DNA of 64,000 nucleotides from Candidatus Bathyarchaeota archaeon. Lineage in GTDB: Archaea; Thermoproteota; Bathyarchaeia; Bathyarchaeales; Bathycorpusculaceae. Below the pieces are notes generated by a model that was given only the letters and a program-made list of their open reading frames with translations, was not told where the DNA came from and searched no databases. The DNA lies in NCBI GenBank assembly GCA_963833575.1, contig CAWHXY010000006.1:160001-224000 (forward strand), given 5' to 3'. Both the position numbers and the translations under genes were made by a program. Below, one piece after another: positions 16,091-64,000 of the stretch. Numbering within the stretch: the first letter of the stretch is position 1; the number at the start of each line of letters is the position of its first letter.

Positions 16091-17011
16091 TTAAAATCGA
16101 TGAATAAACGAGGTAAGTTGTTGGGCATTCTCGAATTTTTCCGTTAGTGGTACTTGCAAGTATGCGGCATACTTGTTGTAGTAGGGTGCGCCTTTTCTTG
16201 AGAATAAAGTTAAGACTTTTCCTTCATGATTAATTTTAAAACCTACATCGCTTGCTTCGTGCCCCCGAATCAAAATTTTGACTTGCAACCGTCTAAGAAC
16301 TTCCTCAGTCACTTTTTTGCCAAAAAGCTTTCCTATACTCCTTGGAGAAAAAGAGACGCCTGGCAACGCTTCAGCTGGATCGCTCCAAAGCAAATCTTCT
16401 AGCAAAGCTTCGTTTTGATTTTCTTGTGCTTCTGCGATGTCTTGAACACTACTTATTTCTGGAGATAAGCCGCCATGAACCATCAGATAGCAATTAGGCA
16501 CATACAACGCATTATATAGGCAAGTGTGAAATTCACGTATTTTCGCGTAAGTTGTTTGCCAATCTTCGCCAAACCTGCGTTGGAATTGATAAGGCAAATC
16601 ATGCGGTTCGCCCAGCAAATCTTGTGGTGCTTCATGGTTTCCCCTCAGCAGAACAACTTGTTTAGGATAAGTAAGCTTTAGCTTTAGAATAAAATAGTAG
16701 ATTTCTGTTGATTTTTCGCCTCTGTCGCCATAATCACCCAAAAAAATCATTGTTGCATCTTTAGCTTTCTCCATTTTCTTGAGAAAACAGCTTGTCTGAA
16801 GGATAGATGTGAGGCTTTCTAGATCTCCATGCAAGTCGCCAATTACTAATGCTTCGCCAATTGGTTCAAGCTTAACTAAATGATTTATTATTGTCAAATT
16901 GCCAATTTGGCCATCTTCTTTTTGCAACAAACAGGTGGCTTTTTCTATTATTTCGATGAAATCGCTTCTTTGGATGCTTAAGGCTTCTTCAACAAGTGAA
17001 GGCAAATCCAA
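16091..17011 (-). CDS. PPP-family Ser/Thr protein phosphatase
   Basis: GDLHG, GDYGDRG, LRGNHE, VHGG, DLLWSDP, IRGHE, TLFS. Confidence 0.92.
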   Translation of the reverse strand: MDLPSLVEEALSIQRSDFIEIIEKATCLLQKEDGQIGNLTIINHLVKLEPIGEALVIGDLHGDLESLTSILQTSCFLKKMEKAKDATMIFLGDYGDRGEKSTEIYYFILKLKLTYPKQVVLLRGNHEAPQDLLGEPHDLPYQFQRRFGEDWQTTYAKIREFHTCLYNALYVPNCYLMVHGGLSPEISSVQDIAEAQENQNEALLEDLLWSDPAEALPGVSFSPRSIGKLFGKKVTEEVLRRLQVKILIRGHEASDVGFKINHEGKVLTLFSRKGAPYYNKYAAYLQVPLTEKFENAQQLTSFIHRF

Positions 17012-17028
17012 AACTCAAACACCCAAGA

Positions 17029-18279
17029 CTATGGGATTTGAACTTTTATGTTGATTGAGTTGAGGATGTTTCTTTCAATTGTTCGCTTCATGTTGCTGAT
17101 TTTGTCCACAGTTTCAATGTATGCATTTTCTTTGACTGCTTCATGTGTTTCGATGCTTGTTTTTCTAGCTTTTAGCAACTCAACTTGGCTTTCAAACACT
17201 GAAATGTTGTGTTTTATTTCATCCATCTTTGAAGATTCCAATAACTGCTGTTTTATGTTTGCCATTTCCGTGCATCTTAATTGAAGTTTTGCAAGTGAAT
17301 TTTGCTTGAGTATTTCATTTATTGATTGTTGGGCTTTGCGTGCTTTATCTTGTTTGAGCTTTAGTTTGTCCTCTTCGATTAAGAGTTCAAGTTTTTGCAA
17401 AATTTCTTCAAGTACTGGAAAACCGTTTTTCTCGCTTGTAAGCGCCTCAAAAGGGTTCTCCAAGTACTGACTTACTTTTTGGAGTTCATCGGGAGTTACT
17501 CCTGCTCCGCCTCCTGAAGTGGCTAAGGCTTGCATTTTTATGAAGGGTTTTTGCAGGTGCCTGAGCGAATGTTTCAATTCAGCGGTTAGAGTGTCTATTT
17601 CTGCGTTTACCATATTGAGTTTGTCAATCGGTCCTTTAGTTTTTAGCTCATCAATTTTTTGTTCTAATTCAGCGATTTCTTTGTCGACTGGCAAACGCTC
17701 ATTTCTTAATTGTTCTTTTTCGTCTCCAATTGTTGCTATCTGTTTTTGAACGTTTTGAAGTTCATTTAGAAGCTGGAGAGATTCTTCCAAAGTTTTAGTT
17801 TTAACGTATTCTTTTGTGATGAAATCGTTGAGTGTTTGATGTGCAGCTTTAGCTCTTTCGTATATGGTCAGGAATTTTCTTCTGTCCATAATAAAGAATG
17901 GTGAAATTCTTGGAAACCAGTTTTTTATGTCTATTTCAGTTACTAAAAAGATTTTTTGGATTTCTTGAGCGTACCTGCTTAGGGTGTCGTAAGAAATTTC
18001 TTCTGGTGGGTTAAGTTTTTTGAGACGATCGAGGAACAGATGAGCAAGCTTGTTTAGGGCTCTGGCTCGATTGTAAACTTTCATGTTTCTTCTTTCGATT
18101 TCTTTTGTGCTGTTGTCCAACAGCATTTTGCTTACGTCGCCTATGCTTTGGATCGCCATGTTCATTTCATCTCTTAGTCTTTTAGCTTGAGCATGAACTG
18201 GCGAAAGGATTGAGCTGGTTTGGTCTTCAAGCCAACGTTTAACTTCGTTAGTTGATGAGAACTGGATTGCTTCAGTCAA
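17029..18279 (-). CDS. Long coiled-coil protein of unknown function
   Basis: E/K/L/Q-rich heptads throughout; no Walker motifs; 17 bp upstream of the phosphatase gene. Confidence 0.65.
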   Translation of the reverse strand: MTEAIQFSSTNEVKRWLEDQTSSILSPVHAQAKRLRDEMNMAIQSIGDVSKMLLDNSTKEIERRNMKVYNRARALNKLAHLFLDRLKKLNPPEEISYDTLSRYAQEIQKIFLVTEIDIKNWFPRISPFFIMDRRKFLTIYERAKAAHQTLNDFITKEYVKTKTLEESLQLLNELQNVQKQIATIGDEKEQLRNERLPVDKEIAELEQKIDELKTKGPIDKLNMVNAEIDTLTAELKHSLRHLQKPFIKMQALATSGGGAGVTPDELQKVSQYLENPFEALTSEKNGFPVLEEILQKLELLIEEDKLKLKQDKARKAQQSINEILKQNSLAKLQLRCTEMANIKQQLLESSKMDEIKHNISVFESQVELLKARKTSIETHEAVKENAYIETVDKISNMKRTIERNILNSINIKVQIP

Positions 18280-18419: not shown

Positions 18420-19031
18420 TTGAACACAAAAACACTAGCGCTAATCATAATCTTTGTAGCATTAACCACTGCACTAAACATTGCGGGACCAAAAATTCCA
18501 TTTCCGTTTGCACCATTCTTATATTACCAAATTTGGGAAATCCCCATTGTTGCAGCTTTCTTGACTATTGGGCCAAAAACCGGGTTAGCCGTCGCGGGGC
18601 TAAACACCTTGCTTCTCCTTATAGTATTCCCAGGAAATCTTCCAACTGGACCCTTCTATAATTTAATCGCCGAACTTGCAATGCTGATAGGAATCTACGC
18701 AGCCTACAAATTAGCCACCTATAGATGCCCGACTGAAAAAATAGGCTCCTTCCTGAAACAACATAAATTAGGGTTAAGCATCTCCGCAACTGCGCTCGGA
18801 GTCACCACGCGTGTCATAATAACAACAGTTGCGAATTATTCCTTGATAGCTCAACCCTCACCAATCGGCTTTGGCTCGTTCTTCTCATTTGGAGGACTAG
18901 GGGGTCAAGCAGGCGTAATTGCGTTTCTGCCTTTCAGTGTACTATTTAATGCTACGATAGCACTCTACACTATTCCTATTGGAGTCATCGTAGCAATAGC
19001 TATCAATTCAAACTTTAAACAGCTAACATAA
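18420..19031 (+). CDS. ECF transporter S component (substrate unknown)
   Basis: About 6 TM; PFAPFLYYQIWEIP, GP..G, R...T...NY pattern. Confidence 0.7.
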   Translation: MNTKTLALIIIFVALTTALNIAGPKIPFPFAPFLYYQIWEIPIVAAFLTIGPKTGLAVAGLNTLLLLIVFPGNLPTGPFYNLIAELAMLIGIYAAYKLATYRCPTEKIGSFLKQHKLGLSISATALGVTTRVIITTVANYSLIAQPSPIGFGSFFSFGGLGGQAGVIAFLPFSVLFNATIALYTIPIGVIVAIAINSNFKQLT

Positions 19032-19063: not shown

Positions 19064-20023
19064 TTAGAATCCTAAGGATCCAGCTAATACCTTAGGGTTA
19101 ATTTGTCCTGCGGTGAATGAGTTGCCGGTTTTAGCATTGTTTATGATTAGGGCTGCTGGAGCAAATAAGCCGTGGTCGATTTTGTAGAAGTCGCGGTCTG
19201 CTTCACGGAAAATCTGGAGGAAAGGTTTCCCATAGTCCTTTGAGGCTTTAGAAGGAGCTTGCTCTACAATCTTCTGCAGGCTTGCTTCGTCATCGTATTC
19301 GACAGTGCAGTATACAGTTCCGCCATATAGAATTGCATCGTTGGTGCGTGCCATTGCTACTTCAAAATCTTTGCCCATAGGCGGAATTGGAGCGTAACCT
19401 AATGCATATCGAATCACATTGGGGCTTAGCCCTAGTGTTCGTAGTTTGTGAATGCCAACTTCTACAACTCTGCCAGCAACTTGAGTTAAACCTGCGATGC
19501 TTGCGGTTGGAGCAACGGCGACAATCAGATTCTCGGCTTTGATGTTACTTGCAGTCGTTACTTTCTCAATAAGAGCGTCAGAAGGCAAAACATTGCTTTC
19601 TAAAGTAAGAACTGCCTTGTCACTTGCGTCTTTGTAGCCGATTTCTTCGAAAACATCTTTAGGCTTCAACGCCAGAGCACGAACGGGACCAGAGCCGATG
19701 GCTATTGAATCGCCATCTTTGATACGCCAGCCAGCAAACTGCGAACCCAAAGCGGCAATCGCAGGGTGATCTGTGCTAACGGTTATTGACGGGAAAGCTA
19801 CTTCTCCGTATGTTTTGAATCCTAGTTGGGCTTTTCCCGCTCCGCCCATGCATAATTCAGTGAGTTTTTTACCTGCTTGAAAACCGCCTGGAGCTTTTAC
19901 ACCTAAATCAATGATTATAGCTCCCGCAGTTGATTTTGAGATAGCTACGCCGTAAAATTCTTGGTTATCGATGAATTTTTGGGCTATTTTCCAAGCCATT
20001 TGGTTTACGCTTAAAGTCCCCAT
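19064..20023 (-). CDS. mch: Methenyl-tetrahydromethanopterin cyclohydrolase
   Basis: LSVN, ELCMGG, GSQFAGW, GSGP.RALA, APTASIAG..QV..RVVE, AMARTND.ILYGG, FYKID..LFAPA. Confidence 0.96.
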   Translation of the reverse strand: MGTLSVNQMAWKIAQKFIDNQEFYGVAISKSTAGAIIIDLGVKAPGGFQAGKKLTELCMGGAGKAQLGFKTYGEVAFPSITVSTDHPAIAALGSQFAGWRIKDGDSIAIGSGPVRALALKPKDVFEEIGYKDASDKAVLTLESNVLPSDALIEKVTTASNIKAENLIVAVAPTASIAGLTQVAGRVVEVGIHKLRTLGLSPNVIRYALGYAPIPPMGKDFEVAMARTNDAILYGGTVYCTVEYDDEASLQKIVEQAPSKASKDYGKPFLQIFREADRDFYKIDHGLFAPAALIINNAKTGNSFTAGQINPKVLAGSLGF

Positions 20024-20063
20024 GATTTGTCACTTCAAGTATGCGTATTCTTGATGGGCTTTT

Positions 20064-20600
20064 TCATATTAACTTAGCGCTGCTTGACTGCTTTAACTTG
20101 TGATAAGCACTCACTATTTTACTTTTAAGAAAACCAAGAACGGTAGGGGTAAAGATAGAAAGCGTAGCCAAAAGGAAGTTAAGTGGATAGACTGTGGGGT
20201 ACTCGAAAAGATTGCCGCCCCATGACCCGGCAATATTTAGCAGGCCACCTGACAACTGAAAAAGCGTCCAAATAGCAGTTTGCAGCCAAGCACCCTTAAG
20301 ACGAGCAACGTACTTTTCCCGTCCCTCGAGAGTCTTACCCTTGATACTGATAAAAAAGATTTCACCCGCAACTGCGCCTGCACCCCCAGGAAAAAAAGCA
20401 TTCACAAGAATTTTCTCAACTAAGTTACCGGGAATATAGTAGCCAATCCAGGGAGTTTGAAGCAAGCTTAGCACGGGTAGGATAACGTTGCCAGTTGCTA
20501 GCCGAATCGCAGCAGGGATAGCATAAATAATAGCGCAGGAGATCTCCCAAACCCAAAACCTCCTGTTTCTGAACAAATTTGATAAGGCTTTCGAATACAT
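20064..20600 (-). CDS. Hypothetical membrane protein
   Basis: 4-5 hydrophobic segments; co-oriented between citG-like and mch. Confidence 0.6.
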   Translation of the reverse strand: MYSKALSNLFRNRRFWVWEISCAIIYAIPAAIRLATGNVILPVLSLLQTPWIGYYIPGNLVEKILVNAFFPGGAGAVAGEIFFISIKGKTLEGREKYVARLKGAWLQTAIWTLFQLSGGLLNIAGSWGGNLFEYPTVYPLNFLLATLSIFTPTVLGFLKSKIVSAYHKLKQSSSAKLI

Positions 20601-20660
20601 AGACTTTTAGACTAACCTGAAATGTTTTAATTCTTTCCCAAACATGAGGCGTTAGCTTAT

Positions 20661-21608
20661 TTACGGTCTGTATCCGCAAAGAGTGCAGAGAGCCAGCGCT
20701 GAAGCTGTTAAGTCCGCAGTAGTTCCTGGATTGCACTTATTTTGGGTCGACCGCAGCTTCAAATCAAACTGCTTGAAGCTTTTTCTACCCTTTTCGGTTT
20801 CTAACCCGCCCAGCTCCAAAACAGCCTTAGCGTCGGATGACACTTTCCCTGCTTTTTCTTTGCCGACTTTCCGAGCTATGAAGGTGTCTGGGTGTTCTGA
20901 CAGGATTTTTAGGAAGGTGTGGACGACCGCCGTGTTTAACGGTTTACTTTTTAGTTGCTCAATCAAATATGGATACGCTAAGTCGAAAGTTATCGGATAA
21001 TTATTTGCCCATTCTGAACATATGTCGTCGTATGCTGCGGCTAATTTGAAAACATCAAATAACGTAATATTTTCTTTTATCAAGCGGTCTTTGGAGTGCG
21101 GGTCATTAACATCAAGATCAGGCGCTTCGTTGAGACCACTTGGGTTGGCGATGCCCACTGCTTCATACAGATGCACTGAATCCCACGCTGTGGTTGATTT
21201 AACTACCAGATCAATATTCTTACGCAAAAGAGAAAAATCCAAAGAATAATCGGGATCATTCGATGTCATGCCAGCGGCAACAGCAATAGGTACAAAAAGC
21301 ATTATGGTACCCAAAATCGTGTTTCCACCCCTTTGCCAAGCGTTAACATCACGAGAGCATGTTTTTATGAGCTGCCCCAACCCCACTTCGCTGACAGCAA
21401 GTTTATTTTCTGCAACTGAAACCCCGCGGTAAGCCGCCTTCTGAAAGGTTGGTCCTGAAGCAACAGCAGAAGCCAAGAAATGCTGGCAAATTGTTCCTTC
21501 AAAGCTCGAGGTCAAGTTAACATTGCCCGGTTTTTCCGCGCTAACCTCAAGCAGAATCGCCAACTCTAAACATTTAGAAATATGTTGAGCTTTCTCTTGG
21601 TTACTCAT
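20661..21608 (-). CDS. citG: CitG/MdcB-family triphosphoribosyl-dephospho-CoA synthase-like protein
   Basis: LEVSAEKPGNV, NTILG.I.L..P, PDTFIARK.G, NPGTTADL. Confidence 0.88.
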   Translation of the reverse strand: MSNQEKAQHISKCLELAILLEVSAEKPGNVNLTSSFEGTICQHFLASAVASGPTFQKAAYRGVSVAENKLAVSEVGLGQLIKTCSRDVNAWQRGGNTILGTIMLFVPIAVAAGMTSNDPDYSLDFSLLRKNIDLVVKSTTAWDSVHLYEAVGIANPSGLNEAPDLDVNDPHSKDRLIKENITLFDVFKLAAAYDDICSEWANNYPITFDLAYPYLIEQLKSKPLNTAVVHTFLKILSEHPDTFIARKVGKEKAGKVSSDAKAVLELGGLETEKGRKSFKQFDLKLRSTQNKCNPGTTADLTASALALCTLCGYRP

Positions 21609-21697
21609 TAGTACACCGACCTTAAGTGGAGCAAAAAAGGTTTATTAAAGTTATTAAAAACCTACAAGCAGACATACAACCAAACGGTGAAGATTTG

Positions 21698-22717
21698 ATG
21701 AGAGCACGTGAAGGCGATTTAATCAAGACAAAAAGCAACGTTGTTTTTGACGTAAAAGGATTAGTGCATCCAGCGGACAAGATTATTGCGTTTCCACGCT
21801 TCATACCCTCGTCAACCGGCACCAGGCAAGGCAAAGACGCAACATATGGCAAAGTCTACAGCCTCGGTGACAGATTCAAGTACCTGCAAGGAAACCACCC
21901 TGACCTAATAGTATTTGACCCTGTATTTGGAGAAACAATGTGTGAAGTCCCAGTTGCACAAGTGGCTGAGCACTACAAGCCTGAAGAAAAGCTTTGGGTG
22001 CTACGTACCTCAAAGGACCTGACAGTGTTAGAGGATAAAGCTTTGCTATTAGCTCAAACGCTGAAAGCAGAAGCAAACATTCCATGGAGCAACATTGGCA
22101 TTTCAGGCTCGATAATGGCTGAGTTAACAACAGAAAAATCCGACATAGACCCATTAGTCTACGGAATAGAGAACTGCCGAAAAGCCTACGCTGCCCTGCA
22201 AAAGCTGCTAATAAAAGAGGATTCAGGCTTCAACCCATACACACAAACGGAATTGCGGGAGCTATTCGACTTCCGTTCGAAAGACACCCAGATGAGCTTC
22301 GAAGACTTCGTTTTAGTCGAAAGCCGCAAGGCATTTCAAGGCAAGTTCATGGGTACCGACTATTTCATCCGTTTCGTGAAAGACTGGAAGGAAATAAGCG
22401 AGCAGTATGGCGACGTGTGCTTCAAAAACAATGGCTACGCCAAAGTAACAGCCAAAATAGCTGACAGCACAGACTCACTTTTAACGCCGTGCACTTACAA
22501 GTTGAAAGAAGTCTATGTTGTTGAAGGACCCAAGTTGCAGCCAATACAGGAGATTGTTTCGTTCCGCGGAAGGTTCTGTGAACAAGCGGCAAACGGCGAA
22601 GATATTGAGGCACAAGGCAAAGTTGAATTGGTAACCAACAAAAAAAGCAGCGACGAATACTACCGTTTGATACTGGGTAATAAGCCGTCGGATTACATGG
22701 TTCTTTCACACATTTAG
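21698..22717 (+). CDS. Pol-beta-superfamily nucleotidyltransferase (COG1665-like), paralog 1
   Basis: FDVKG..HP, GISGS, SDID, SFRGRF.EQA..GE..EA.GK.E; GGTGA RBS before ATG 21698. Confidence 0.78.
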   Translation: MRAREGDLIKTKSNVVFDVKGLVHPADKIIAFPRFIPSSTGTRQGKDATYGKVYSLGDRFKYLQGNHPDLIVFDPVFGETMCEVPVAQVAEHYKPEEKLWVLRTSKDLTVLEDKALLLAQTLKAEANIPWSNIGISGSIMAELTTEKSDIDPLVYGIENCRKAYAALQKLLIKEDSGFNPYTQTELRELFDFRSKDTQMSFEDFVLVESRKAFQGKFMGTDYFIRFVKDWKEISEQYGDVCFKNNGYAKVTAKIADSTDSLLTPCTYKLKEVYVVEGPKLQPIQEIVSFRGRFCEQAANGEDIEAQGKVELVTNKKSSDEYYRLILGNKPSDYMVLSHI

Positions 22718-23784
22718 TGTAGCACTTTCAAGACTTGCTCATAATATCGGGGGCAATAAGTCAGCGTAACCTGATAGAAGATTTCAGTTGACGAGGTCAC
22801 TTCTTCCAAGTTGCCCTCAACAATAACTTCCTCATCCTTTTGCGCCTGTTGACGGAATTCTTCCATAAAAGAGAACACACGCCTTGCCTCAAGGCCTTCC
22901 TTTGGCCCACTCATGACCTCCAGAGGCTCGATACCGTAAATTGACGGAATAAACGACGACTCATCGTCGGCTATTATTCGAGCTTTAAGTTTAACCCAGC
23001 CCCTCCGCGTTATGCAAGTCCGCGGGTTATACTCAGATTGAATTTCGTTCCAAGCCTTCACGGGCTCAAACTCCGCTTTTATCGTCCTGCCGCTGGCTTT
23101 ATCATCATATAAACCGTAGATTTGTTTTCGGCGTTGATGCCAAATGAAGTCTGGGACGGTAAAGTTTACGAATCGCCAATCTTTTCCTGCCATCGCTTGA
23201 TTTGACTGGAACTCGTTATGCAAACCTGACTGCTTATCTGCGTATAAGGCTTGAAGTGTTTCTCGCATTTTTGCGTTTTCGGGTTTACCGTAAACTATGA
23301 AGTCGATGTCTGAAAACTTTGGATGATAAAAGCCATGGAGCATAGAGCCGAAGACGCCAAAGTTCTCTGTATTTAAGCCTGAATTGCTAAGCGAAATCAT
23401 TAGAACACGCTCCATTGCCGCTAGCAACTCGTCTGTTGGTCCAGCCTTAAGCAAGAGCGTTAGTCGCTCTTCAGGTTTTCTTGCTTCAGCGACAGCGTTA
23501 TCTTTAACGCCGACGAGATTTAGCCCAAGCATTTCATGAAAAATAAGGTATTGAGGATATTTTTTTGCGACTAACTTCATGCCTTCGTCGTTATAGAATT
23601 TGTAATAGAGTTCTTTTTTGCCTGTTCTTGGCGCTCGCGGGTCATTTGATTTGAAAATGTTGCTTGATGCATATTCAGCGTCGCATATGTATGCGCTTGA
23701 TGGATGGGAGTAGCCGAAGACACGGAAGATTAAACCTTCGCTTGTTTCTACGGCATCGCGATCGCGTAGCTTCAAGTTGGCCAA
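22714..23784 (-). CDS. Pol-beta-superfamily nucleotidyltransferase (COG1665-like), paralog 2
   Basis: [37 protein letters not shown]. Confidence 0.78.
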
Positions 23785-24803
23785 ACGTATTCTTCCTCAG
23801 ACGTTGCTGTTCCAACGACAACTTGATAGAATACTTCATTTGAACTCGTTGACTCGACCCTTTCGAGTTTGCCTGCGACTTTGATTTCGCTTCCTGCCCT
23901 TGCAATGTTTCGGTAGCAACCGATATTTGATACAACCTGAACGGGAATCTTGTCCAAATCAAGTTCTGATTGGTCATCTTGGGGTTTGTAACCTGATATT
24001 TTGTAAATTGCTGGGCGATACATGGTTTCCGTGTCTTCGCAAACTGTGGCAAAGAACCGGACGGCGTCAAGCGGTACGTAATTGTAAGCTCCATATTTTT
24101 CTTTGACTTGCTCGGGCCTCTTAGTTGCGTTATACATGAAGATTTTGCCCATATATTTTCCTTGAAATTTTCTGGCTGCTTCCAAGCGGTTACCAATTAT
24201 GTAGCTTAGTTTGGCAGTGTTAACCAGCCTTGCTATGGCTTCTTCTACTAAGCGGAAATTTTCTGTGCCGTAAATAACAAAATCTATATCCGATTCTGGC
24301 GCATGCATGTTTAAGGCAATGGAACCATGAACTCCAAAGTCTTCTAAGGGAACATTTGATTCTTTGGAAATTAAACAAATAAGATCCAGTGCCATTTGCT
24401 GAAGTTTGTCGCGTTTTGGCAAGTTTTGCAGCCATACCAAGCGGTCTTTAGGTACAAACACCTGCTCTATTCGGTCAAGAGGTGCAGTGATAAGTTCCTT
24501 ATTTCGGTAGGAGTCATAATAGAGGTAATCTGGAAAATTTGTGCGGAAGGCTTCAATAAAGGTCTGGTAATTTTTTGCTGTATAGAGCTTTTCTGCCCTG
24601 AAAAGCTGGTTCTCTCCAAACTTCCACGTTCGCTCCAACATTTCAACGTTAAAGAGCTCTTTGAATTTCGCTGGGATATATTTTAGGAAAGCGAATACTC
24701 GATCGTCTGGATGCTCATACCCAAAAGTATTGAGTATGAAACTATCTTTAGTAACAAAGGTGTCTCCATCCATTGGAACCCAAATATCTTCCGCCGTACA
24801 CAT
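23772..24803 (-). CDS. Pol-beta-superfamily nucleotidyltransferase (COG1665-like), paralog 3
   Basis: [37 protein letters not shown]; overlaps paralog 2. Confidence 0.78.
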
Positions 24804-51104: not shown

Positions 51105-52048
51105 TTCATCGAATCCTTTCCAATTTCATGTGCGACGAATCTTCTGTTAACTGCATCTCGTCTGTTCTCGTCAGCTTGAGTTTTTAATTCTTTTAACGCA
51201 TCGACTGGCGAAGTTATTCGTTCTAACGCTTTATTCCAAGTTCCTGAGTGTATGGGAGTATGTTGGACTTTTGTGCGTTTAACCATTAATGCTTCGTCTA
51301 CTGGGCAAACGTTTTTGCATGCGCCACAATAGGTGCAGAATAATTCGTTAACGTGAACTTTCTTGTCCTCACCAAGCGTTAATGCTCCTGGAATGGGGCA
51401 AACATCAAGGCAGTCTTTGCATCCGACGGGGCACTTCTCCTGATCAATGTTGATTTTTCCTTCAAAGGCTTTTGTAACTTTTAATGCGCCTGGACTACAT
51501 TTAAATTCACAAACTCTGCAAGTTGGGCAATAATCCTTTTGGATATCTAAGTTAACTTGAACGCGCTGTTTGGCGCTTGGAGATAAAGCTGCTATGTCTT
51601 CGACAGGGGAACCGTCAAAGCCAACTCTTGAAATTTTGATGAGCGATAACGGGCAGGCATTTTCGCATTCTACACACTCTTTCTGACATAAGTGAGTGTT
51701 CACTTTTATATCGCGGATCAGTTGCGGATAACTTTCCTTCTCCAAAATGGAGAGGTCATGTGTATTATTCAAGGTAACTTTTATCGCTCCATAAGGACAG
51801 GTAACATCACAGATTCCACAAAAAGTGCATTTAGCTAAGTCAACGTCCACTTTGGCTTTCTTAGCTTTCTGCCCTTCAATTTTAGGTTGCTTTTTGGTCG
51901 CAATGGCTTCTTTGGGGCATGCCAAACGGCATATTTGGCAACCAACACAACGGTTCTTATCAATAGTTAATTTGTAGTTTTTAACCTGCAAGACCCACTC
52001 TAAAGTCTGGGCATCTGCCGTATCCTTCTTTACGGTTTGTAACGGCAT
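51101..52048 (-). CDS. Polyferredoxin (six predicted [4Fe-4S], FwdF-like)
   Basis: Six CxxCxxCxxxC(P)-type motifs; 4-bp overlap with hdrA. Confidence 0.85.
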   Translation of the reverse strand: MPLQTVKKDTADAQTLEWVLQVKNYKLTIDKNRCVGCQICRLACPKEAIATKKQPKIEGQKAKKAKVDVDLAKCTFCGICDVTCPYGAIKVTLNNTHDLSILEKESYPQLIRDIKVNTHLCQKECVECENACPLSLIKISRVGFDGSPVEDIAALSPSAKQRVQVNLDIQKDYCPTCRVCEFKCSPGALKVTKAFEGKINIDQEKCPVGCKDCLDVCPIPGALTLGEDKKVHVNELFCTYCGACKNVCPVDEALMVKRTKVQHTPIHSGTWNKALERITSPVDALKELKTQADENRRDAVNRRFVAHEIGKDSMK

Positions 52049-57127: not shown

Positions 57128-57892
57128 TTGAAAGACGTCCAAAATGAAAAGCCTGAAAACGAAATTGAATTAAACAAAGTTGGAGTAGAAGGGCTAAGAA
57201 AATACGTCATAGTTAAAAGTCCAACAAAAAACTATCATACAATCGTAACAATCAACAGCTACATAAAATTGCCCTCCAACCTCCGCGGAGTACACATGAG
57301 CAGGTTTGCGGAGTCAATAGAAGAAATCCCCGAAGAAACAACTTCAATCGAGGACTTAGCTGAAAAAATCTCTAAAACCTCCCTTGCAAAACACCGCTTC
57401 GACTGCTGCACCAAAGTGTTCTGCGAATTTCCATTTGAAAGAACCAGACCCAACGGCGAAAAAGAAAATGCAATAGCCCAAATGTCCGCAAGATACTCAA
57501 CTGCAACCAAAAGAAAAACTCTCTGCATTTCACTTAACGGGGCACTTGCTTGTCCATGTTCAAAAGAAATGTGTAATGGCTTAACGCATAATCAGCGGGG
57601 AAATTTGAGCATAGATATTGACGTTTCAAAAGGCGAAGTTGAACTCTCAGACATCATCAGTACTTGTAGCGAGAGTTTTAGTTCGCCAACATTTTCAATC
57701 TTGAAGAGACCTGAAGAAAAAAAACTTGTTGAGCAAATGCACGAAAACGCCAGATTCGTTGAAGATGTTGTTAGGAAATGTGTCCAGTCACTAAGAGAAA
57801 AATACCCCAATAGGTATTGCAGCGTGAAATGTTCCAGTTATGAATCTATCCACGACCATAATGCCTACTCAGAATGGCGAGGAACACTCTAA
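57128..57892 (+). CDS. mptA: GTP cyclohydrolase MptA/FolE2 family
   Basis: DVQ, RGVHMSRF, ACPCS, THNQRG, LKRPEEK, NARFVEDVVR, ESIH.HNA. Confidence 0.92.
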   Translation: MKDVQNEKPENEIELNKVGVEGLRKYVIVKSPTKNYHTIVTINSYIKLPSNLRGVHMSRFAESIEEIPEETTSIEDLAEKISKTSLAKHRFDCCTKVFCEFPFERTRPNGEKENAIAQMSARYSTATKRKTLCISLNGALACPCSKEMCNGLTHNQRGNLSIDIDVSKGEVELSDIISTCSESFSSPTFSILKRPEEKKLVEQMHENARFVEDVVRKCVQSLREKYPNRYCSVKCSSYESIHDHNAYSEWRGTL

Positions 57893-57907
57893 ACGGATAT
57901 GCGTTAA

Positions 57908-58270
57908 ATGTACAGGCTAAAGGTAGAATCTGATTTCGATGCAGCCCACAAAATAGATGGGTACCAAGGCAAATGTGCTCGACTTCATGGTCACACCTAC
58001 AAAGTCGAAGCCTTCTTTCTAACAAAACAGCTAGATTCAATCGGCGTTTCAGTTGACCTTAGAACCCTAAAAGAAAAGTTGATCAAAATAACTGAACAGT
58101 TTGACCACAGGTATCTAAATGATTTTGCAGAATTAGGCAATCCGACTACTGAAAACCTTTCCCACCACATTTTTCTACGCTTAAAAGATAACTTACCAAA
58201 CGGAACGACTCTGGAGAGGGTAAGGGTTTGGGAAACTCCGAAAAGCTGGTGTGAATATTTTGAAACCTAA
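57908..58270 (+). CDS. queD: 6-carboxy-5,6,7,8-tetrahydropterin synthase (PTPS-I type)
   Basis: FDAAH, CARLHGHTY (CxxxHGH), DH..LND, NPTTEN, VWETP. Confidence 0.92.
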   Translation: MYRLKVESDFDAAHKIDGYQGKCARLHGHTYKVEAFFLTKQLDSIGVSVDLRTLKEKLIKITEQFDHRYLNDFAELGNPTTENLSHHIFLRLKDNLPNGTTLERVRVWETPKSWCEYFET

Positions 58271-58319
58271 AGCCATAAAACAAATGGCCAGTCAATAAAT
58301 GTGGGAGAGGAAACTTGTA

Positions 58320-58676
58320 ATGTCGGACAAGGTCTTTGTTAAGAATCTAGTTGTTCCATGCAAAGTCGGGGTTACTAAAGAGGAAAAGTCGAAAAAACAA
58401 AATATTATCGTTGATATTGAGGTTTTTTGCGATTTAAGCCATGCTGGAGCCACGGATGTTATAAGCAAAAGTATAAGTTACTCTGAAATACAAGAAAAAG
58501 TAATTAACGCCGCTGCAAACAGAGAATTCAACCTTTTAGAAAGCTTTGCCGAGAATCTGGCATCGTTGATCTTGCAGAGTTCTGTCGCTTCCAGAGTTGT
58601 GGTAACTGTTAAGAAAGAAAAATACGGGAAAGAGCCAATAATGGGAATTGAAATTGCAAGGGACCGACATGGTTGA
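58320..58676 (+). CDS. folB: Dihydroneopterin aldolase, bacterial type
   Basis: GV..EE....Q....D, D....ISY, NLLE..AE, V.V.K. Confidence 0.88.
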   Translation: MSDKVFVKNLVVPCKVGVTKEEKSKKQNIIVDIEVFCDLSHAGATDVISKSISYSEIQEKVINAAANREFNLLESFAENLASLILQSSVASRVVVTVKKEKYGKEPIMGIEIARDRHG

Positions 58677-59205
58677 AGCGTACATTGCTTTAGGCTCCAA
58701 CATAGGCGATCGAGAGGCAAATATAAAAAAAGCATTTGACGCATTAAAAGAACGAATTAAGATTGTTAAAGCATCTTTGCTTTATGAAACTAAACCTATG
58801 TATATAGAGGACCAAGGATGGTTTCTAAACTGCACCGCTAAAGTTGAGACAGATTTAACTCCTAAAGAGCTTTTGAAGTTTTTGAAGAGCATAGAACAAA
58901 AATTAGGCCGCAAAACCGTAAAACGAAACGGTCCCAGAATCATAGATTTAGACATTCTCTTCTACGGAGACCAAATTCTTAAAGAAAACGATTTACAGGT
59001 ACCTCACCCAAAAATTGAGGAAAGACCGTTCGTTCTCGTTCCTTTAGCCGAAATCGCACCTAACCTCATTCACCCAGTAAACAAAAAAACCATTGCTGAA
59101 ATGCTCTCTGAATTGGATTATGACAAATCAGAAATCAACCCAAAAACCAAAACAATGATTAACCAAAAAAAAAGTGGAATGACAAGACATGAAAGTTTAC
59201 GTTAA
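58669..59205 (+). CDS. folK: 6-hydroxymethyl-7,8-dihydropterin pyrophosphokinase, bacterial type
   Basis: YIALGSNIGDR, YET.P, FLN, IE..LGR, GPRIIDLDIL, PHP...R.FVLVPL. Confidence 0.95.
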   Translation: MVEAYIALGSNIGDREANIKKAFDALKERIKIVKASLLYETKPMYIEDQGWFLNCTAKVETDLTPKELLKFLKSIEQKLGRKTVKRNGPRIIDLDILFYGDQILKENDLQVPHPKIEERPFVLVPLAEIAPNLIHPVNKKTIAEMLSELDYDKSEINPKTKTMINQKKSGMTRHESLR

Positions 59206-60145
59206 GACCCCAGCTAGATTACATTTGGGACTTGTGGATTTGAACGGCGATTTAGGGCGAATTTTTGGAGGTTTAGGGGTAGGCATTGATCATCCAAATG
59301 TAATTTTGGAAGCAAAAGAAAGCCAAACGTTAACGGTTGGAGGCGAAAAAGCTGAGTTAACGCAGAAACTTACTATCGCATTTCTGCAGGCGTATGGAAT
59401 AAAAGAGAAAGTTGCAGTTGATGTTAAGCAGGTGATTCCGGAGCATGTTGGGCTTGGCTCAGGTACCCAGCTGGGTTTAGCTGTTGCCGTTTCACTTTCT
59501 CGGTTGTTTGATGTGAAGGGTTCAATTCACGAATTTGCAGTAGTTATGGGTAGAACGAGTCAGTCTGGAGTGGGCACGGCAGTGTTCGAACACGGCGGAT
59601 TGGTAGTGGATGCTGGAAAAAACACGCATGACCCATCCAAGAAGGAAATACCGCTAATTTGCCGTCAACCCTTCCCAGATGAGTGGCGCTTCGTTGTAGC
59701 AATTCCAAACGTAAAAAAGGGTTTGGCAAACGAAACAGAGGCTTCAGCGTTTAAGCAACTTCCACCCATGCCTACGTCAGAGGTTGGCAAAATCTGTCGA
59801 TTAACGATGATGAAGCTCCTGCCAGCTATCCCAGAAAAAGACCTAAAAAATTTCGGCGAAGCATTAACTGAGATCCAACGTATTGTGGGCGACAGCTTTG
59901 CAGAGGCTCAGGGAGGCAGATACTCAAGTTCCACAGCCACCCAGTGTATTGAGTTCATGCTTGAAAACGGCGTTTACGGTTCAGGGCAAAGTTCGTGGGG
60001 ACCAACGGTTTATGGTGTAGTTAAAAAAGAGGAAGCCAAAGAAATCCAATTGAAAACTCAAGCTTTTCTTAACCAGAGTGTTGGTGGAAATGTTTTTGTT
60101 GCCAAAGGTAATAGTCGGGGAGCAATTATCAAAGTTATCAATTAA
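59189..60145 (+). CDS. mptG: Beta-ribofuranosylaminobenzene 5'-phosphate synthase (GHMP fold), paralog 1
   Basis: TPARLHLGL.DL.G..GR..GG.G, PEHVGLGSGTQL, SGVG...F..GG..VD.G, GQSSWGPT. Confidence 0.88.
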   Translation: MKVYVKTPARLHLGLVDLNGDLGRIFGGLGVGIDHPNVILEAKESQTLTVGGEKAELTQKLTIAFLQAYGIKEKVAVDVKQVIPEHVGLGSGTQLGLAVAVSLSRLFDVKGSIHEFAVVMGRTSQSGVGTAVFEHGGLVVDAGKNTHDPSKKEIPLICRQPFPDEWRFVVAIPNVKKGLANETEASAFKQLPPMPTSEVGKICRLTMMKLLPAIPEKDLKNFGEALTEIQRIVGDSFAEAQGGRYSSSTATQCIEFMLENGVYGSGQSSWGPTVYGVVKKEEAKEIQLKTQAFLNQSVGGNVFVAKGNSRGAIIKVIN

Positions 60146-60201
60146 GAGTTGAACGAAAAACTTATAATTCTGCTTGGCTGCATCACCGTGCAGTGGACAG
60201 A

Positions 60202-61164
60202 ATGCAAGAAACTAAAAAAGTTACGGTAACTGCACCGGCTCATCTTCACACGGGCAATTTTGACATGACAGGAGATCTTGGAAGACTCTATGGAACTGTT
60301 GGTTTCGCAGTTGACAGGCTTCTTGAGATTGAAGTCACCAAAACTAACGACGTTAAGTCTGAAGATGAGGCGGCTTATCTTTTCGCGAGTCGTTTTGTCG
60401 ATGCCTTCGACTTGGCTGGGGCTGAGGTTAAGGTTAAAAAGAGCATTCCAAAATTTGTGGGAATGGGGTACCATACAACTTTAGCGCTGTCAATAGGTTC
60501 TGCATTAGCAAAATTGTACGACTTGAAGTTAACCACTGAGCAAATTGCTTTGACAATGCAGAGAGGAGCAATAACTAGCCTAGGTGTTCATGCCTTCAAG
60601 GTAGGCGGGTTTATCGTTGAAGGGGGTTTCAGAGTTGATCAGAGAGAAAAAATGATTCCTCCACTTATCTTCCGTCAGCCGGTTCCAAGCAACTGGCTCT
60701 TTGTCATAGCCATAGCCGCTGAACCTCAAGAAAAAATCGTTAAAATGCGGGAAAACGAAGATCACATTCTTAGAAACCTCAAATTGATGCCAAAAGAAAC
60801 CTCAGATATGCTCTCAAGAATTGTGCTCGTTAAAATAATTCCGTCAATAATCGAGAATGATCTCAAATCGTTTGGCGAAGGCTTAACAGCTTTTAACTCG
60901 GAATTGGGCAAGTTTTGGAATGAATACCAATGTGGCAGAACGTACTGTCATCCAGTAGTTGAAGAGGCAATAAAAATTATTCTACGCAGAAGCACATGTG
61001 CATGTCAAACCTCGTGGGGACCGACAATCTACGGTATAGTCGATGGAAAAAATCAAGCTGAAACCTTAACTAAGGAACTTAAGGAGTATTTAGCCAAAAA
61101 CGGTGGGGGAGAGGTCTTCTACACCAAAGCTAATAATGTTGGAGCGGTGATTGGAGGCAAGTAA
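60202..61164 (+). CDS. Beta-RFAP synthase-like GHMP protein, divergent paralog 2
   Basis: APAHLHTG, GR.YG, PKFVGMGYHTT, F..GGFIVEGG, QTSWGPT, ANN.GA. Confidence 0.78.
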   Translation: MQETKKVTVTAPAHLHTGNFDMTGDLGRLYGTVGFAVDRLLEIEVTKTNDVKSEDEAAYLFASRFVDAFDLAGAEVKVKKSIPKFVGMGYHTTLALSIGSALAKLYDLKLTTEQIALTMQRGAITSLGVHAFKVGGFIVEGGFRVDQREKMIPPLIFRQPVPSNWLFVIAIAAEPQEKIVKMRENEDHILRNLKLMPKETSDMLSRIVLVKIIPSIIENDLKSFGEGLTAFNSELGKFWNEYQCGRTYCHPVVEEAIKIILRRSTCACQTSWGPTIYGIVDGKNQAETLTKELKEYLAKNGGGEVFYTKANNVGAVIGGK

Positions 61165-61167
61165 TCC

Positions 61168-62319
61168 TTGGTTAAAGCCATAGGTATTGATTCTGGAACA
61201 AAAACTATGGACATTTTCGGTTTCGACGACAAAGACGGCAGCATAATAATTGACGTAGCCATTCCAAGAGATCAGATTACAGAAGGATCCAAACTTGTAC
61301 TCGAAAAACTAAGAGATGTACAAAATCGCGTTGGAAAAATAGATGCCATTGTTGGTCCATCTGGTTATGGTATGCAGCTTAAGAGGGCTCAAGAAGCTAC
61401 TGATGAGGAAATTGCTGAGGCAACCTTTGTAACAGAAGCTGACGTTAAAAGGCGACTGCGAATCATTGGTCTGCGAGAGCTTATGGCCTGGCTAAGGAAC
61501 GCTGACGATTTAAACACTTACTTTACACAGAGCGTCATTCACCTGAAGACGGTGCCGAGATATAGAAAAGTTAACAAAATAGACATGGGAACTTCAGACA
61601 AAGTTTTAAGCGTGGTTTTAGCTGTCAAGGACCAAGCTGAAAGACGGCAAATTCCATACAGCCAAACCTCATTCATTCTTCTTGAAGTCGGATTCGGCTA
61701 TACATCTGCAATGGCAGTCCAAAACGGAGAAATCGTTGACGCAATGGCTGGTACTGCTGGTTTTCCATCGTTTCTCGGAATGGGCTTTCTTGACTCAGAA
61801 GTAGCCTACGCCTTAGCTAACGCTACTAAGGACTTTTCAAAACAGCTCCTCTTCGCTGGCGGAGTAGCTTCATTTGCAGGGATTGATCCCTCTAAGCCTT
61901 TGGAAGAATTTGTCAAGAATGCAAAAACTGACCCGCAAATCAAAGAAGGCTATAAGCTGATGCTGGAATCAATAACTAAAGATGTTTCCTCGCTCCTTCC
62001 ATCGGTTAAACCTAAAGAAATAATACTTAGTGGGAGATTCACGCGGATTCCAGAGTTTCTAGCAGCTATGAAGGAAGAGCTTTCGCGTTTCTTTGCTGGA
62101 ACTGGCTTGAAAATTGACATTTCAGTGCTTGAGGGAAAAGCAGCTGTAACTAAGCAAGCGGCTGAAGGCGCGGCGGTATTCGCCAACGGATTGGCAGGCG
62201 GCAAATACAAACAACTAGTTGATACTATGAGGCTTAGAGAAAGCGAAGGAACTGTGTTCAGCAATCTTTGTCTTGGCAAGGATATCGCTGAAGGATTAAA
62301 AGTGTTTAAAAAGTTATGA
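61168..62319 (+). CDS. DUF1464-family ASKHA-fold (butyrate kinase-like) protein
   Basis: GIDSGTK, GPSGYG, VIHL.TVP..RK.NKIDMGT.DK, E.GFGY, IILSGR, K.AAEGAA..A.GLAGG. Confidence 0.8.
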   Translation: MVKAIGIDSGTKTMDIFGFDDKDGSIIIDVAIPRDQITEGSKLVLEKLRDVQNRVGKIDAIVGPSGYGMQLKRAQEATDEEIAEATFVTEADVKRRLRIIGLRELMAWLRNADDLNTYFTQSVIHLKTVPRYRKVNKIDMGTSDKVLSVVLAVKDQAERRQIPYSQTSFILLEVGFGYTSAMAVQNGEIVDAMAGTAGFPSFLGMGFLDSEVAYALANATKDFSKQLLFAGGVASFAGIDPSKPLEEFVKNAKTDPQIKEGYKLMLESITKDVSSLLPSVKPKEIILSGRFTRIPEFLAAMKEELSRFFAGTGLKIDISVLEGKAAVTKQAAEGAAVFANGLAGGKYKQLVDTMRLRESEGTVFSNLCLGKDIAEGLKVFKKL

Positions 62320-62330
62320 GCTTTCTCTGA

Positions 62331-63893
62331 TTATTCTTTGAACATTGGTTTATCTTGGATGTATTCCTTGCCTGTTCTCAATGCAATTTCGGCTTTTGTC
62401 AACTCGCTTCCTAAGTAAGCGGAATGATCCATCCTCGAAATTAAACCCAACTCGATAATCTTCCTGTATATGCCGTCGGCAGTTTTGCCCTTAACAATTA
62501 ATGTGGGGACTTCTAAATCCGTTAACGTTAAATGGATAGCTACAATGCTTTGCTTTTCCCGGTCAACAAAAATTCTAAAAGATCCCTGCTTATCAATTTC
62601 CGCAGATCCCTCATTGTTCTTGATTGTCAAAATATGCGTACTTTCCTCAAGTTTTTTGTTGTATTTCTCTTCTCGGTTCCTCTTGTCCTTCAAAATAAGC
62701 AGATCTATCCCAAGGTCTTTGGGAAAAGATCCCCGCTTTTTTGCCAAAAACATCATTTTTGATGCAGCAACCTCTTCTTTGATGCTTCCTTGTGCCTTGT
62801 CACTTTTCTGTGTAGCCAACATCATATCTGCGCCGATTTCTGAGCAGAGCCGTGCAAGCAAAGCGTTGACACCTACAGAATCCGCATCCATAAGTTCAGT
62901 AACATTAGAAACCCCAACGAAAAGCGGAACATCTGGATTTCTCTGTGCAAATTGTCGGAAAGCAAGAAATGATCCTAAAACGTCTAAGGGGTCAAGAATC
63001 AAGTCAGCAAAAACATTCTCTGTGCCAAATCTCTTGGCTTTAGCAATTACTTGTTCTAGCAGTTGCACGCGTTCCTCGGGTTTCTTTGGGAAGCATCCTT
63101 CACGTTGGTTACTGGGGATTGCTACCACGGCAACATTGCTTGGAAGAGGTGCTATTGCCTCTATGTTTCCAGCGTCAACACTAAGTATCAATTCGGCACC
63201 GGCAGAAACAGCTGCTTTAATTTCCTCTGGATCAAGCGAATCAATACTAATAGGAACCGACACTACATCTTTTACTGCGGCAACAATCCGCTTGGCGTCT
63301 TTTGGCCTGCTTTCACCAGCAACCATTCCAACATCAATAACGTCCGCACCAAGGGCAACATACTTCTTAGCTAACCGCTGAATCTCTCTGTTACTCAGCA
63401 AAGCGGCATCAACTATTTCAGCCAACACACGCATGGGAAAATCTTTTCCAACAGCTAAATTTTTAATTTCCATGTTCCCTGGTTCTTTCAGGAGGGTTTC
63501 TTTGTTTTCTTCAACTTTCAATATTTCCTCAAGAGCCTTCTTCTGAAGTTTTTCTCTGAGTAATTCGCATGCAGGCACAACTGTTGAAAGCGTCACTTCA
63601 CCAAGCATTTCGAGAACAGTTGGTAAGTCAGCAGCATATTGCGGACCCTTAAACGCTGGAATGCCAGTGGTTTTGAAGATAACTGACGTATCGCCTCGAA
63701 CTAGCCCTGGAACAAGAATTAAATCAAAATCGTTCACTTTCGCTTGCTTTAAAGATTGACTAATTGTTTGAGGCGTCAAAAAAGCCGCCACTGGAACATT
63801 CAGCACCATAACTTTGGTTTCAATTTGGCTCTGAATGGCGTAATATTCAACGGTTTCTTGTGCAAGTAAACCAGTGATTAACAGCACCTTCAC
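62331..63893 (-). CDS. Archaeal dihydropteroate synthase-like protein with C-terminal DUF4346-like domain
   Basis: KVLLITG.LA, VAAF.TP, MRVLAEIVDA, GAD.IDVG, SIDS, DLILDP, GVSNVTELMDADS.G.N, PKDLG.DLL.LK.K, H.AYLG.EL.KA..AL..G..Y.QD; GTG start overlaps the upstream stop. Confidence 0.88.
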   Translation of the reverse strand: MKVLLITGLLAQETVEYYAIQSQIETKVMVLNVPVAAFLTPQTISQSLKQAKVNDFDLILVPGLVRGDTSVIFKTTGIPAFKGPQYAADLPTVLEMLGEVTLSTVVPACELLREKLQKKALEEILKVEENKETLLKEPGNMEIKNLAVGKDFPMRVLAEIVDAALLSNREIQRLAKKYVALGADVIDVGMVAGESRPKDAKRIVAAVKDVVSVPISIDSLDPEEIKAAVSAGAELILSVDAGNIEAIAPLPSNVAVVAIPSNQREGCFPKKPEERVQLLEQVIAKAKRFGTENVFADLILDPLDVLGSFLAFRQFAQRNPDVPLFVGVSNVTELMDADSVGVNALLARLCSEIGADMMLATQKSDKAQGSIKEEVAASKMMFLAKKRGSFPKDLGIDLLILKDKRNREEKYNKKLEESTHILTIKNNEGSAEIDKQGSFRIFVDREKQSIVAIHLTLTDLEVPTLIVKGKTADGIYRKIIELGLISRMDHSAYLGSELTKAEIALRTGKEYIQDKPMFKE

Positions 63894-64000
63894 TGCCGTT
63901 GCCTCCACACATCTACTCGCCGAATCAAATCAGCCATAACCAGCGAATAAGGTGAGTTTGGAGCAACCCTATTTACCACTTTATTGCAGTCGTCAATCAT
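63890..64000 (-). CDS. C-terminal fragment of an upstream gene (possibly DUF447-like), cut by the window edge
   Basis: Open frame ...IDDCNKVVNRVAPNSPYSLVMADLIRRVDVWRQRQ* ending in a GTGA overlap with the DHPS-like gene. Confidence 0.45.
   Translation of the reverse strand: MIDDCNKVVNRVAPNSPYSLVMADLIRRVDVWRQRQ

Follow-up and report, generated by a model that had tools for sequence, protein, structure and literature searches.

A CitG-like protein and Pol-beta-fold nucleotidyltransferases beside mch in Bathyarchaeia: candidates for building the methanopterin side chain

Gene order at the mch locus

The stretch of DNA analysed here (64,000 nucleotides, referred to as the window; G000:C6:160001-224000) belongs to a soil archaeon whose genome measures 2.75 Mb and is 94% complete, and the closest relatives of its proteins are named Candidatus Bathyarchaeia. 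Beside mch, the gene for methenyl-tetrahydromethanopterin cyclohydrolase, it encodes a CitG-like protein and three Pol-beta-fold nucleotidyltransferases (NTases), which are the subject of this report. An earlier note on this DNA had described mch, a membrane gene and the citG-like gene as co-oriented, with the last of them divergent by 89 bp from the first of the three NTase genes, and this order was confirmed. The features are as follows (lengths in amino acids, aa):

19064..20023, minus strand: mch, methenyl-tetrahydromethanopterin cyclohydrolase (PF02289, E 6.8e-116; TIGR03120, 371.8 bits, cut-off 228.8)
20064..20600, minus strand: small membrane gene, hydrophobic protein of 178 aa with about three hydrophobic segments
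20661..21608, minus strand: CitG-like gene, 315 aa (PF01874, E 3.6e-68)
21609..21697, no strand: putative divergent promoter region between the CitG-like gene and NTase-A, 89 bp (read directly)
21698..22717, plus strand: NTase-A, 339 aa, clade A, the CitG-adjoining clade (alignments, AlphaFold2 model)
22714..23784, minus strand: NTase-B, 356 aa, clade B (PF01909, E 2.9e-5; tree)
23772..24803, minus strand: NTase-C, 343 aa, clade C (PF01909, E 7.9e-5; tree)
18420..19031, plus strand: membrane protein like the S component of an energy-coupling factor (ECF) transporter, 203 aa, convergent with mch, with about 5-6 hydrophobic segments
57128..63908, no strand assigned: early pterin/methanopterin cluster, about 33 kb from the NTases in the same window (Pfam, TIGR00144)

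As the ATG of NTase-A lies at 21698, the gap to the CitG start is exactly 89 bp. The 3' ends of NTase-A and NTase-B overlap by 4 bp, and NTase-C and NTase-B, which lie on one strand, share 13 bp at the end of the former and the start of the latter. The genome holds exactly three NTases of this family, all of them in the window, and a single CitG-like gene. No Pfam family was found for the 178-aa protein, even at E <= 5. The early cluster at 57128-63908 is compact and complete; it contains MptA/FolE2, PTPS, FolB, HPPK, MptG, an MptG paralogue, DUF1464 and, on the minus strand and convergent, a DHPS-like gene with Pterin_bind, DUF4346 and DUF6513 domains. MptG and its paralogue, a second MptG-like gene of the GHMP family, scored 224.7 and 137 bits with TIGR00144 (cut-off 113.5).

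The nucleotidyltransferase family and its predicted fold

NTase-B and NTase-C are 28% and 26% identical to NTase-A, respectively. The earlier note had read Pol-beta motifs of the type G.xGS...SDID in all three proteins, and the motif G..GS...SDID..YG is indeed invariant across them. For NTase-B, 2031 homologues were found at E <= 1e-3, the closest of which carry the name Bathyarchaeia and reach 73-100% identity. A profile built from the three paralogues of the window matched 1368 cluster representatives at E <= 0.001 among 1.84 billion proteins. One of these, P0238, matched it at positions 5-344 with E 3.4e-56, and its 90% cluster contains MJ1086 of Methanocaldococcus jannaschii (UniProt Q58486); hence the homology to MJ1086 extends over the full length. 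Further named members come from Vulcanisaeta, Baldrarchaeia and a euryarchaeal metagenome-assembled genome (MAG).

Judged from a FastTree phylogeny of 136 full-length rows, the family resolves into several old clades. Clade A comprises 76 rows including NTase-A, clade B 12 rows including NTase-B, and clade C 14 rows including NTase-C, with a sister clade Cs of 30 rows. The MJ1086 clade stands separate with 4 rows, among them M. jannaschii MJ1086, Methanococcus voltae and a Methanobacteriota MAG. Across 55 diverse sequences, ten positions show no variation (H24, G134, G137, S138, D149, D151, G156, P264, G307 and E310). The generic Pol-beta model PF01909 is matched by 52/55 members, while MTPAP-like_central gives weak matches in 22/55 (best E 3.2e-4); an OB fold sits after the palm instead.

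The AlphaFold2 model of NTase-A, built on the 55-sequence alignment, reached a predicted local distance difference test score (pLDDT) of 96.8 and a predicted template modelling score of 0.92. Residues 107-230 are predicted to form a Pol-beta palm, whose structural neighbours are Pol X 3au2 (Z 8.1; root-mean-square deviation 2.8 across 88 residues), TUT7 (7.7), CutA (7.3), Trf4 (7.3) and MenT1 (6.5). Residues 242-339 are modelled as an OB fold resembling the MCM N-terminal domain, SSB, RPA and editosome proteins (Z 6.2-7.5). The N-terminal 106 residues, modelled alone (pLDDT 93.3), weakly resemble small barrels of the Sm/KOW/SH3-like type, with Z at most 4.5. No solved structure related to the family by sequence was found, and Foldseek against the PDB at E <= 0.001 gave no match for the full model or the N-terminal domain. 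Neither MdcG nor CitX is among the PDB matches listed in the structure comparison.

A protein of 505 aa present on 2 contigs (P0196) is an HPPK (PF01288, E 3e-40) fused to a clade-A NTase, and its HPPK part is 48% identical to the HPPK of the window. Fused forms of at least 616 aa were not found in the family, which is weak evidence. Separately, a 769-aa frame at L088:1850-4159 (plus strand) joins a Cs-clade NTase to an M20 peptidase. This frame is weak evidence because a relative 97.6% identical stands alone at 352 aa, and the apparent fusion may stem from an artefact of assembly or of a stop codon.

The CitG-like protein

The CitG-like protein scored 230.7 bits with PF01874 (gathering cut-off 27), covering model positions 2-283 of 284, and it matches PDB entry 3h9p with E 8.6e-15. 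Against the equivalog models of CitG/MdcB it scored 55.2 with NF002315 (cut-off 280), 43.4 with TIGR03132 (282.35) and 37 with TIGR03125 (272.3), and these models align to its C-terminal third only. Judged by these profile scores, it is a member of the triphosphoribosyl-dephospho-CoA synthase superfamily and no orthologue of CitG or MdcB. In the whole genome, no match at E <= 0.01 was obtained to the acyl carrier protein (ACP) family PF06857, to CitX (PF03802) or to MdcG (PF10620).

Conserved neighbourhoods

A search with the clade-A alignment returned the 80 closest loci from Bathyarchaeia species genomes, of which 76 are labelled Bathyarchaeia or Bathyarchaeota, 2 Crenarchaeota or Thermoproteota and 2 bacterial MAGs. 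The last two (L011 and L031, filed under Acidoferrum and Limnocylindrales) are probably mis-binned archaeal contigs, because their NTase genes are 84% and 80% identical to the Bathyarchaeia gene. Among the 73 loci with at least 1.5 kb of upstream flank, CitG lies within 2 kb of the NTase-A orthologue in 66, always on the opposite strand and at a median gap of 97 bp, an arrangement far from chance. NTase-B and NTase-C follow NTase-A in 64/70 loci. Around the NTase-A orthologue, mch was found in 40 of the 80 loci; the ECF-like and 178-aa genes occur in 20 and 19 of them, respectively. A BRE/TATA-like word of the AAAAAGGTTTATTAA type recurs in 36-41 of 58 orthologous CitG/NTase-A intergenic regions.

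The linkage extends to other lineages of the phylum. With 150 of 302 NTase matches listed, 60 genomes had positions for both genes; among these listed matches, a CitG-NTase pair lies within 5 kb in 28 genomes and within 300 bp in 20, and the 28 close pairs span 10 GTDB families, 6 of them outside the class of the window. Eight such loci were annotated. L089 carries an HMPTM radical-SAM gene, two NTases, CitG and DUF447, divergent from MptA, MptE, MptD and a flavoprotein gene. L092 reads NTase, NTase, CitG, DUF447, MptE, flavoprotein, DUF1464, PTPS, MptG and DHPS-like gene. In L090, CitG and the start of the NTase share 4 bp and an HMPTM gene lies close by, and in L091 an NTase stands at the end of mtd-fwd-mch. 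In L093, an ECF S component (ECF_trnsprt) is followed by CitG and then by an NTase. The NTase touching CitG belongs to clade A in 7/7 loci examined, and the second copy belongs to Cs.

The MJ1086 clade was surveyed in 80 metagenome loci, where 79 NTase open reading frames (ORFs) were found, at most one per locus. NTases of the loci L089, L090, L091 and L092 sit in methanopterin clusters; those of the 18 annotated euryarchaeal loci do not. Within 3 kb of the 79 NTases, many of whose loci share synteny and are hence not independent, we found DUF366 in 26, PTPS in 21, a QueE-like radical-SAM gene in 17, Sua5 in 14, a GT3 phosphorylase-like gene in 11 and an M20 peptidase in 6 (e.g. L151). In the M. 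jannaschii-like locus L096, an NYN-domain gene precedes the NTase. GT3 genes (AMP/thymidine phosphorylase-like) stand beside an NTase at L092:5504-7090 (minus strand; Bathyarchaeia), L145:8962-10476 (plus strand) and L160:8936-10450 (plus strand), and their product may be a ribosyl-handling partner.

Phyletic pattern across 251 genomes

Four markers were profiled in 251 genomes of the phylum, namely the NTase profile, CitG (PF01874), MptG (TIGR00144 at E <= 1e-10) and mch (PF02289). They were found in 123, 116, 90 and 62 genomes, respectively, and combine as follows:

NTase and CitG: both 113, NTase only 10, CitG only 3, neither 125
NTase and MptG: both 89, NTase only 34, MptG only 1, neither 127
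NTase and (MptG or mch): both 119, NTase only 4, marker only 6, neither 122

The earlier note had proposed phylogenetic profiling of citG, COG1665 (its label for the NTases) and mch as a check; in the present profiles the NTase tracks both CitG and the methanopterin markers. The linkage of CitG and NTase that the note had seen in one genome is thus real and conserved: 113/123 NTase-positive genomes have CitG, and the two are adjacent in 66/73 loci. There are 66 NTase-positive genomes without mch, all but 4 of which have MptG. Entire families (0/34, 0/17, 0/22 and 0/19) lack all four markers, and the joint pattern of NTase, CitG and methanopterin markers recurs over dozens of families. NTase copy number ranges from 1 to 6 per genome. 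In the named controls M. jannaschii, H. volcanii, S. acidocaldarius and M. acetivorans, CitG and MptG were both found.

A candidate route to the methanopterin side chain

In the CitG reaction, a sugar hydroxyl displaces adenine from ATP, and an alpha-linked 5''-triphosphoribosyl compound results. In the next step, catalysed by CitX or MdcG, a serine hydroxyl attacks the alpha-phosphate and pyrophosphate leaves. Methanopterin has as its tail ribitol-5-O-alpha-ribofuranosyl-5''-phosphate, to which hydroxyglutarate is bound as an ester through its 2-hydroxyl. An inverting attack on ATP gives an alpha-ribosyl linkage and a triphosphate gives a phosphodiester, and methanopterin has both. Because the two-step logic of CitG with CitX/MdcG, applied to a small molecule, would give this alpha linkage and this phosphodiester, we propose that the CitG-like protein and the MJ1086-family NTases together serve as a module for building, or rebuilding, the side chain of a tetrahydromethanopterin (H4MPT)-type C1 cofactor, a proposal to which we give about equal chances of being right and of being wrong. 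Of the C1 carriers suggested in the earlier note, methanopterin fits the phyletic pattern, the neighbourhoods in other lineages and the HPPK-NTase fusion; the chemistry is a proposal.

With gene identities, fold, co-occurrence, adjacency and the HPPK fusion established above, we infer substrates, products and step order as follows. The CitG-like protein would take ATP as ribosyl donor and displace adenine, leaving an alpha-linked 5''-triphosphoribosyl group on the terminal hydroxyl of the aminophenyl-ribitol of the cofactor. The clade-A NTase would then handle this product as an analogue of a nucleoside triphosphate: the 2-hydroxyl of hydroxyglutarate, or another acceptor, would attack the alpha-phosphate, pyrophosphate would leave, and the ribose-5-phosphodiester of methanopterin would result. 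Consecutive steps are argued for because the clade-A NTase adjoins CitG in all seven loci examined, with overlapping stop and start codons in L090. The B and C (or Cs) paralogues may be subunits of the same enzyme, or they may add lineage-specific tail groups. Our literature search found no enzyme assigned to the ribose-phosphate-hydroxyglutarate tail, and a 2011 inventory speaks of an 'estimated 7 unknown proteins' for methanopterin synthesis (PMC3087415).

A number of findings weigh against this proposal. At the level of the proteins, 0/55 family members match the Pfam models of MdcG or CitX at E <= 1, only generic Pol-beta models being matched, so the label 'MdcG-like' used in the earlier note found no support. 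The predicted combination of an Sm/SH3-like barrel, a palm and an OB fold is usual for nucleic-acid enzymes, the Z scores being middling. Published work with cell extracts reportedly identified phosphoribosyl pyrophosphate, not ATP, as donor of the second ribose, and the published pathway is said to include an ATP-dependent addition of hydroxyglutarate. No paper on this NTase family, on COG1665, on MJ1086 or on CitG in connection with methanopterin was found in the literature search.

At the level of genomes, the counts in the 251 genomes overstate independence because the genomes are related. Both genomes of one family (f3) have 4-5 NTases and no CitG, and both genomes of another (f8) have CitG beside mch and no NTase; neither CitG nor the NTase strictly needs the other. 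The f8 CitG-mch pairs lie at G183:C8:44347-46323 and G240:C12:25140-27157, in genomes 98% and 94% complete. Around the MJ1086 clade, a CitG-like ORF was found within 8 kb in 0/80 loci by a hidden Markov model built from 8 Thermoproteota sequences and used without a euryarchaeal positive control, and PF01874 was matched by 0/140 neighbour ORFs in the 18 annotated loci. The earlier note had made its proposal depend on citG-NTase linkage in other genomes; such linkage is thus absent around the euryarchaeal MJ1086 clade and conserved in the Thermoproteota sample. Moreover, MptG is missing in 35/62 mch-positive genomes, 30 of which keep the NTase and 27 CitG, and 34/123 NTase-positive genomes lack MptG. 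In five such genomes (92-100% complete), 5/5 lack MptG above the cut-off, PF14251 (DHPS-like), DUF1464 and MptA/FolE2. Since the module is kept where de novo synthesis looks impossible, it can hardly be part of a de novo pathway there.

Some of these patterns have possible counterparts in the biology of the cofactor. Methylobacterium extorquens uses dephospho-H4MPT (PMC6193120). Bacteria with dephospho-H4MPT would need the first step only, and the f8 genomes may likewise. The absence of MptG, joined in the five genomes above by that of MptA/FolE2, the DHPS-like marker and DUF1464, suggests that auxotrophy for the methanopterin core is widespread in Thermoproteota that carry mch. Genomes that keep the module but lack the early pathway point to salvage or re-tailing as a possible role: an imported core or degraded cofactor would receive a rebuilt tail of ribose, phosphate and hydroxyacid. 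Salvagers of cobamides offer a precedent, as organisms that salvage only the core keep the tail module and rebuild the nucleotide loop. We nevertheless rate this specific role as doubtful, at perhaps one chance in several.

Import might proceed via the ECF-type S component beside mch. This protein belongs to no Pfam family and weakly matches the riboflavin S component RibU (3p5n, E 4.4e-4); the convergent arrangement of its gene and mch, tens of bp apart, is conserved across three families in at least 10 genomes. As an uncertain member of the module, it may import the cofactor or a precursor. Orthologues occur in MptG-positive and MptG-negative genomes, also in two genomes without the NTase; because they do not track MptG loss, they give no specific support to salvage.

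Alternative explanations

The strongest competitor to side-chain assembly by CitG-type chemistry keeps the cofactor and changes the reaction: the NTases would transfer a nucleotidyl group (adenylyl or guanylyl) to an acid or to a phosphorylated intermediate, by analogy with CofC in the case of F420, or add other tail groups, and the CitG-like protein would act at a separate step. The phyletic and neighbourhood evidence serves this explanation equally well. NTases without CitG in f3, CitG without NTase in f8 and the spread of copy numbers speak for it, as do the M20 peptidase genes fused or adjacent in L088 and 6/79 metagenome loci and the GT3 phosphorylase-like genes in L092 and 11/79. What it leaves unaccounted for is the consistent contact of the clade-A NTase with CitG, down to the stop/start overlap of L090. 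We consider it unlikely, yet the first alternative to keep in mind.

Action of the NTases on RNA or tRNA (tailing, repair or modification), with CitG and methanopterin linked to them by synteny and shared phylogeny only, is suggested by the C-terminal OB fold, the Sm/KOW-like N-terminal barrel and the nearest palms, which are those of TUTases, Trf4 and Pol X. The NYN-domain gene of L096 points the same way. As the QueD/QueE-like genes and Sua5 near the MJ1086-clade NTases (Sua5 14/79, PTPS 21/79, QueE-like 17/79) are tRNA-modification genes, this explanation stays alive. Still, the NTase family was not found in the 122 genomes that also lack MptG and mch. To our knowledge, t6A, archaeosine and comparable tRNA modifications occur in nearly all archaea, and they would therefore not yield this phyletic pattern. 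The HPPK fusion and the position of NTases inside methanopterin operons in several families also speak against a role on RNA, and, apart from the weak MTPAP-like_central matches in 22/55 members, the Pfam scans showed no substrate-binding domain of the PAP/OAS type. Taken together, we regard such a role as improbable.

The earlier note had also allowed for a protein acceptor, on which the CitG-like protein and the NTases would install a group of the phosphoribosyl-dephospho-CoA type; the acceptor would be some C1-metabolism protein not recognised as such, and the logic would be the canonical one of CitG/CitX. That the CitG-like protein belongs to the CitG superfamily, the pairing with a Pol-beta NTase and the OB and barrel domains, which could dock a protein, are compatible with this. 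On the other side, the single check made for such an acceptor found no ACP of the known type (PF06857) in the genome, and, with the queries used, the 80 Bathyarchaeia loci showed no small, conserved gene resembling a carrier. The CitG/MdcB equivalog scores are far under their cut-offs, and the phyletic link is to the biosynthetic MptG, even in the 66 NTase-positive genomes without mch. Hence little credence is left for it.

Service to another cofactor (methanofuran or F420) or a function outside cofactors is the least credible explanation of all, since the NTase at the end of the mtd-fwd-mch operon of L091 is outweighed by the 66 NTase-positive genomes without mch, most of them with MptG, and by the pterin enzyme HPPK as fusion partner, so that the methanofuran role raised in the earlier note found no specific support. 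Methanofuran, besides, is not known to contain ribose. In favour of another cofactor, one paper reports that the 'H4MPT-linked' neighbours orf5, orfY and orf17 of methylotrophs act in methylofuran synthesis (PMC8141765).

Relation to known systems

The closest relatives in logic of the proposed methanopterin module are CitG with CitX (citrate lyase) and MdcB with MdcG (malonate decarboxylase). There, as here, a PF01874 enzyme is paired, and often adjacent, with a Pol-beta-fold NTase, and the proposed logic is the same: a 5''-triphosphoribosyl group is made from ATP and then transferred to a hydroxyl with loss of pyrophosphate. In contrast to those systems, the present genome has no ACP, lyase, CitX or MdcG, its CitG-like protein scores far under the equivalog cut-offs, and the acceptor proposed here is a small molecule rather than a protein. 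Unlike MdcG and CitX, the NTases of the present family add an N-terminal barrel and a C-terminal OB fold and occur as up to six paralogues.

The H4MPT islands of methylotrophs resemble the window in that mch clusters there with orf7, which we take to be a CitG-like gene. An island of the order mch-orf5-orf7 is described for Methylosinus trichosporium (PMC3615186). Between mch and CitG, the window carries the 178-aa membrane protein of no known family, whereas the bacterial islands carry orf5, which encodes the glutamate ligase MyfB (PMC8141765). Three NTases are present in addition in the archaeal cluster, and the available extracts of the descriptions of methylotroph islands name no such NTase. 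MJ1086 shares full-length homology and the same Pol-beta motif with the window NTases, but genes of its clade occur singly at each locus and, in the 80 metagenome loci, without CitG within 8 kb. CofC/CofD (F420) and CobU/CobS (cobamide) may serve as conceptual analogues, in that a nucleotide- or phosphate-activated unit is joined to a core via a phosphodiester; their folds and families are unrelated to those of the window module.

If the assignment to the methanopterin side chain is right, it provides concrete, expressible candidates for the tail steps, with MJ1086 as a handle in a model methanogen, and it would carry CitG/CitX chemistry beyond the prosthetic groups of proteins, to a free cofactor. 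Inhibition of methanogenesis would gain new targets, and metabolic reconstructions would improve for Bathyarchaeia, Asgard and other uncultured archaea. The presence of the module in genomes without the early pathway suggests cross-feeding of the cofactor, which bears on the resistance of these archaea to cultivation. Should salvage be true, methanopterin would be exchanged in anoxic soils and sediments as a public good, much as vitamins are.

Other genes of the window

Two further minus-strand genes near mch travel with the cluster in other Bathyarchaeia: a calcineurin-like metallophosphoesterase (16091-17011) in 16/80 loci and a 416-aa protein of no family (17029-18279) in 25/80. A phosphatase step is counted among the unassigned reactions of methanopterin synthesis. 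Elsewhere in the window, the minus-strand region 48648-52048 encodes an 818-aa fusion of HdrA-like and MvhD (FlpD) parts with many Fe-S motifs, followed by a polyferredoxin, which fits an electron-bifurcating module of Wood-Ljungdahl-type metabolism.

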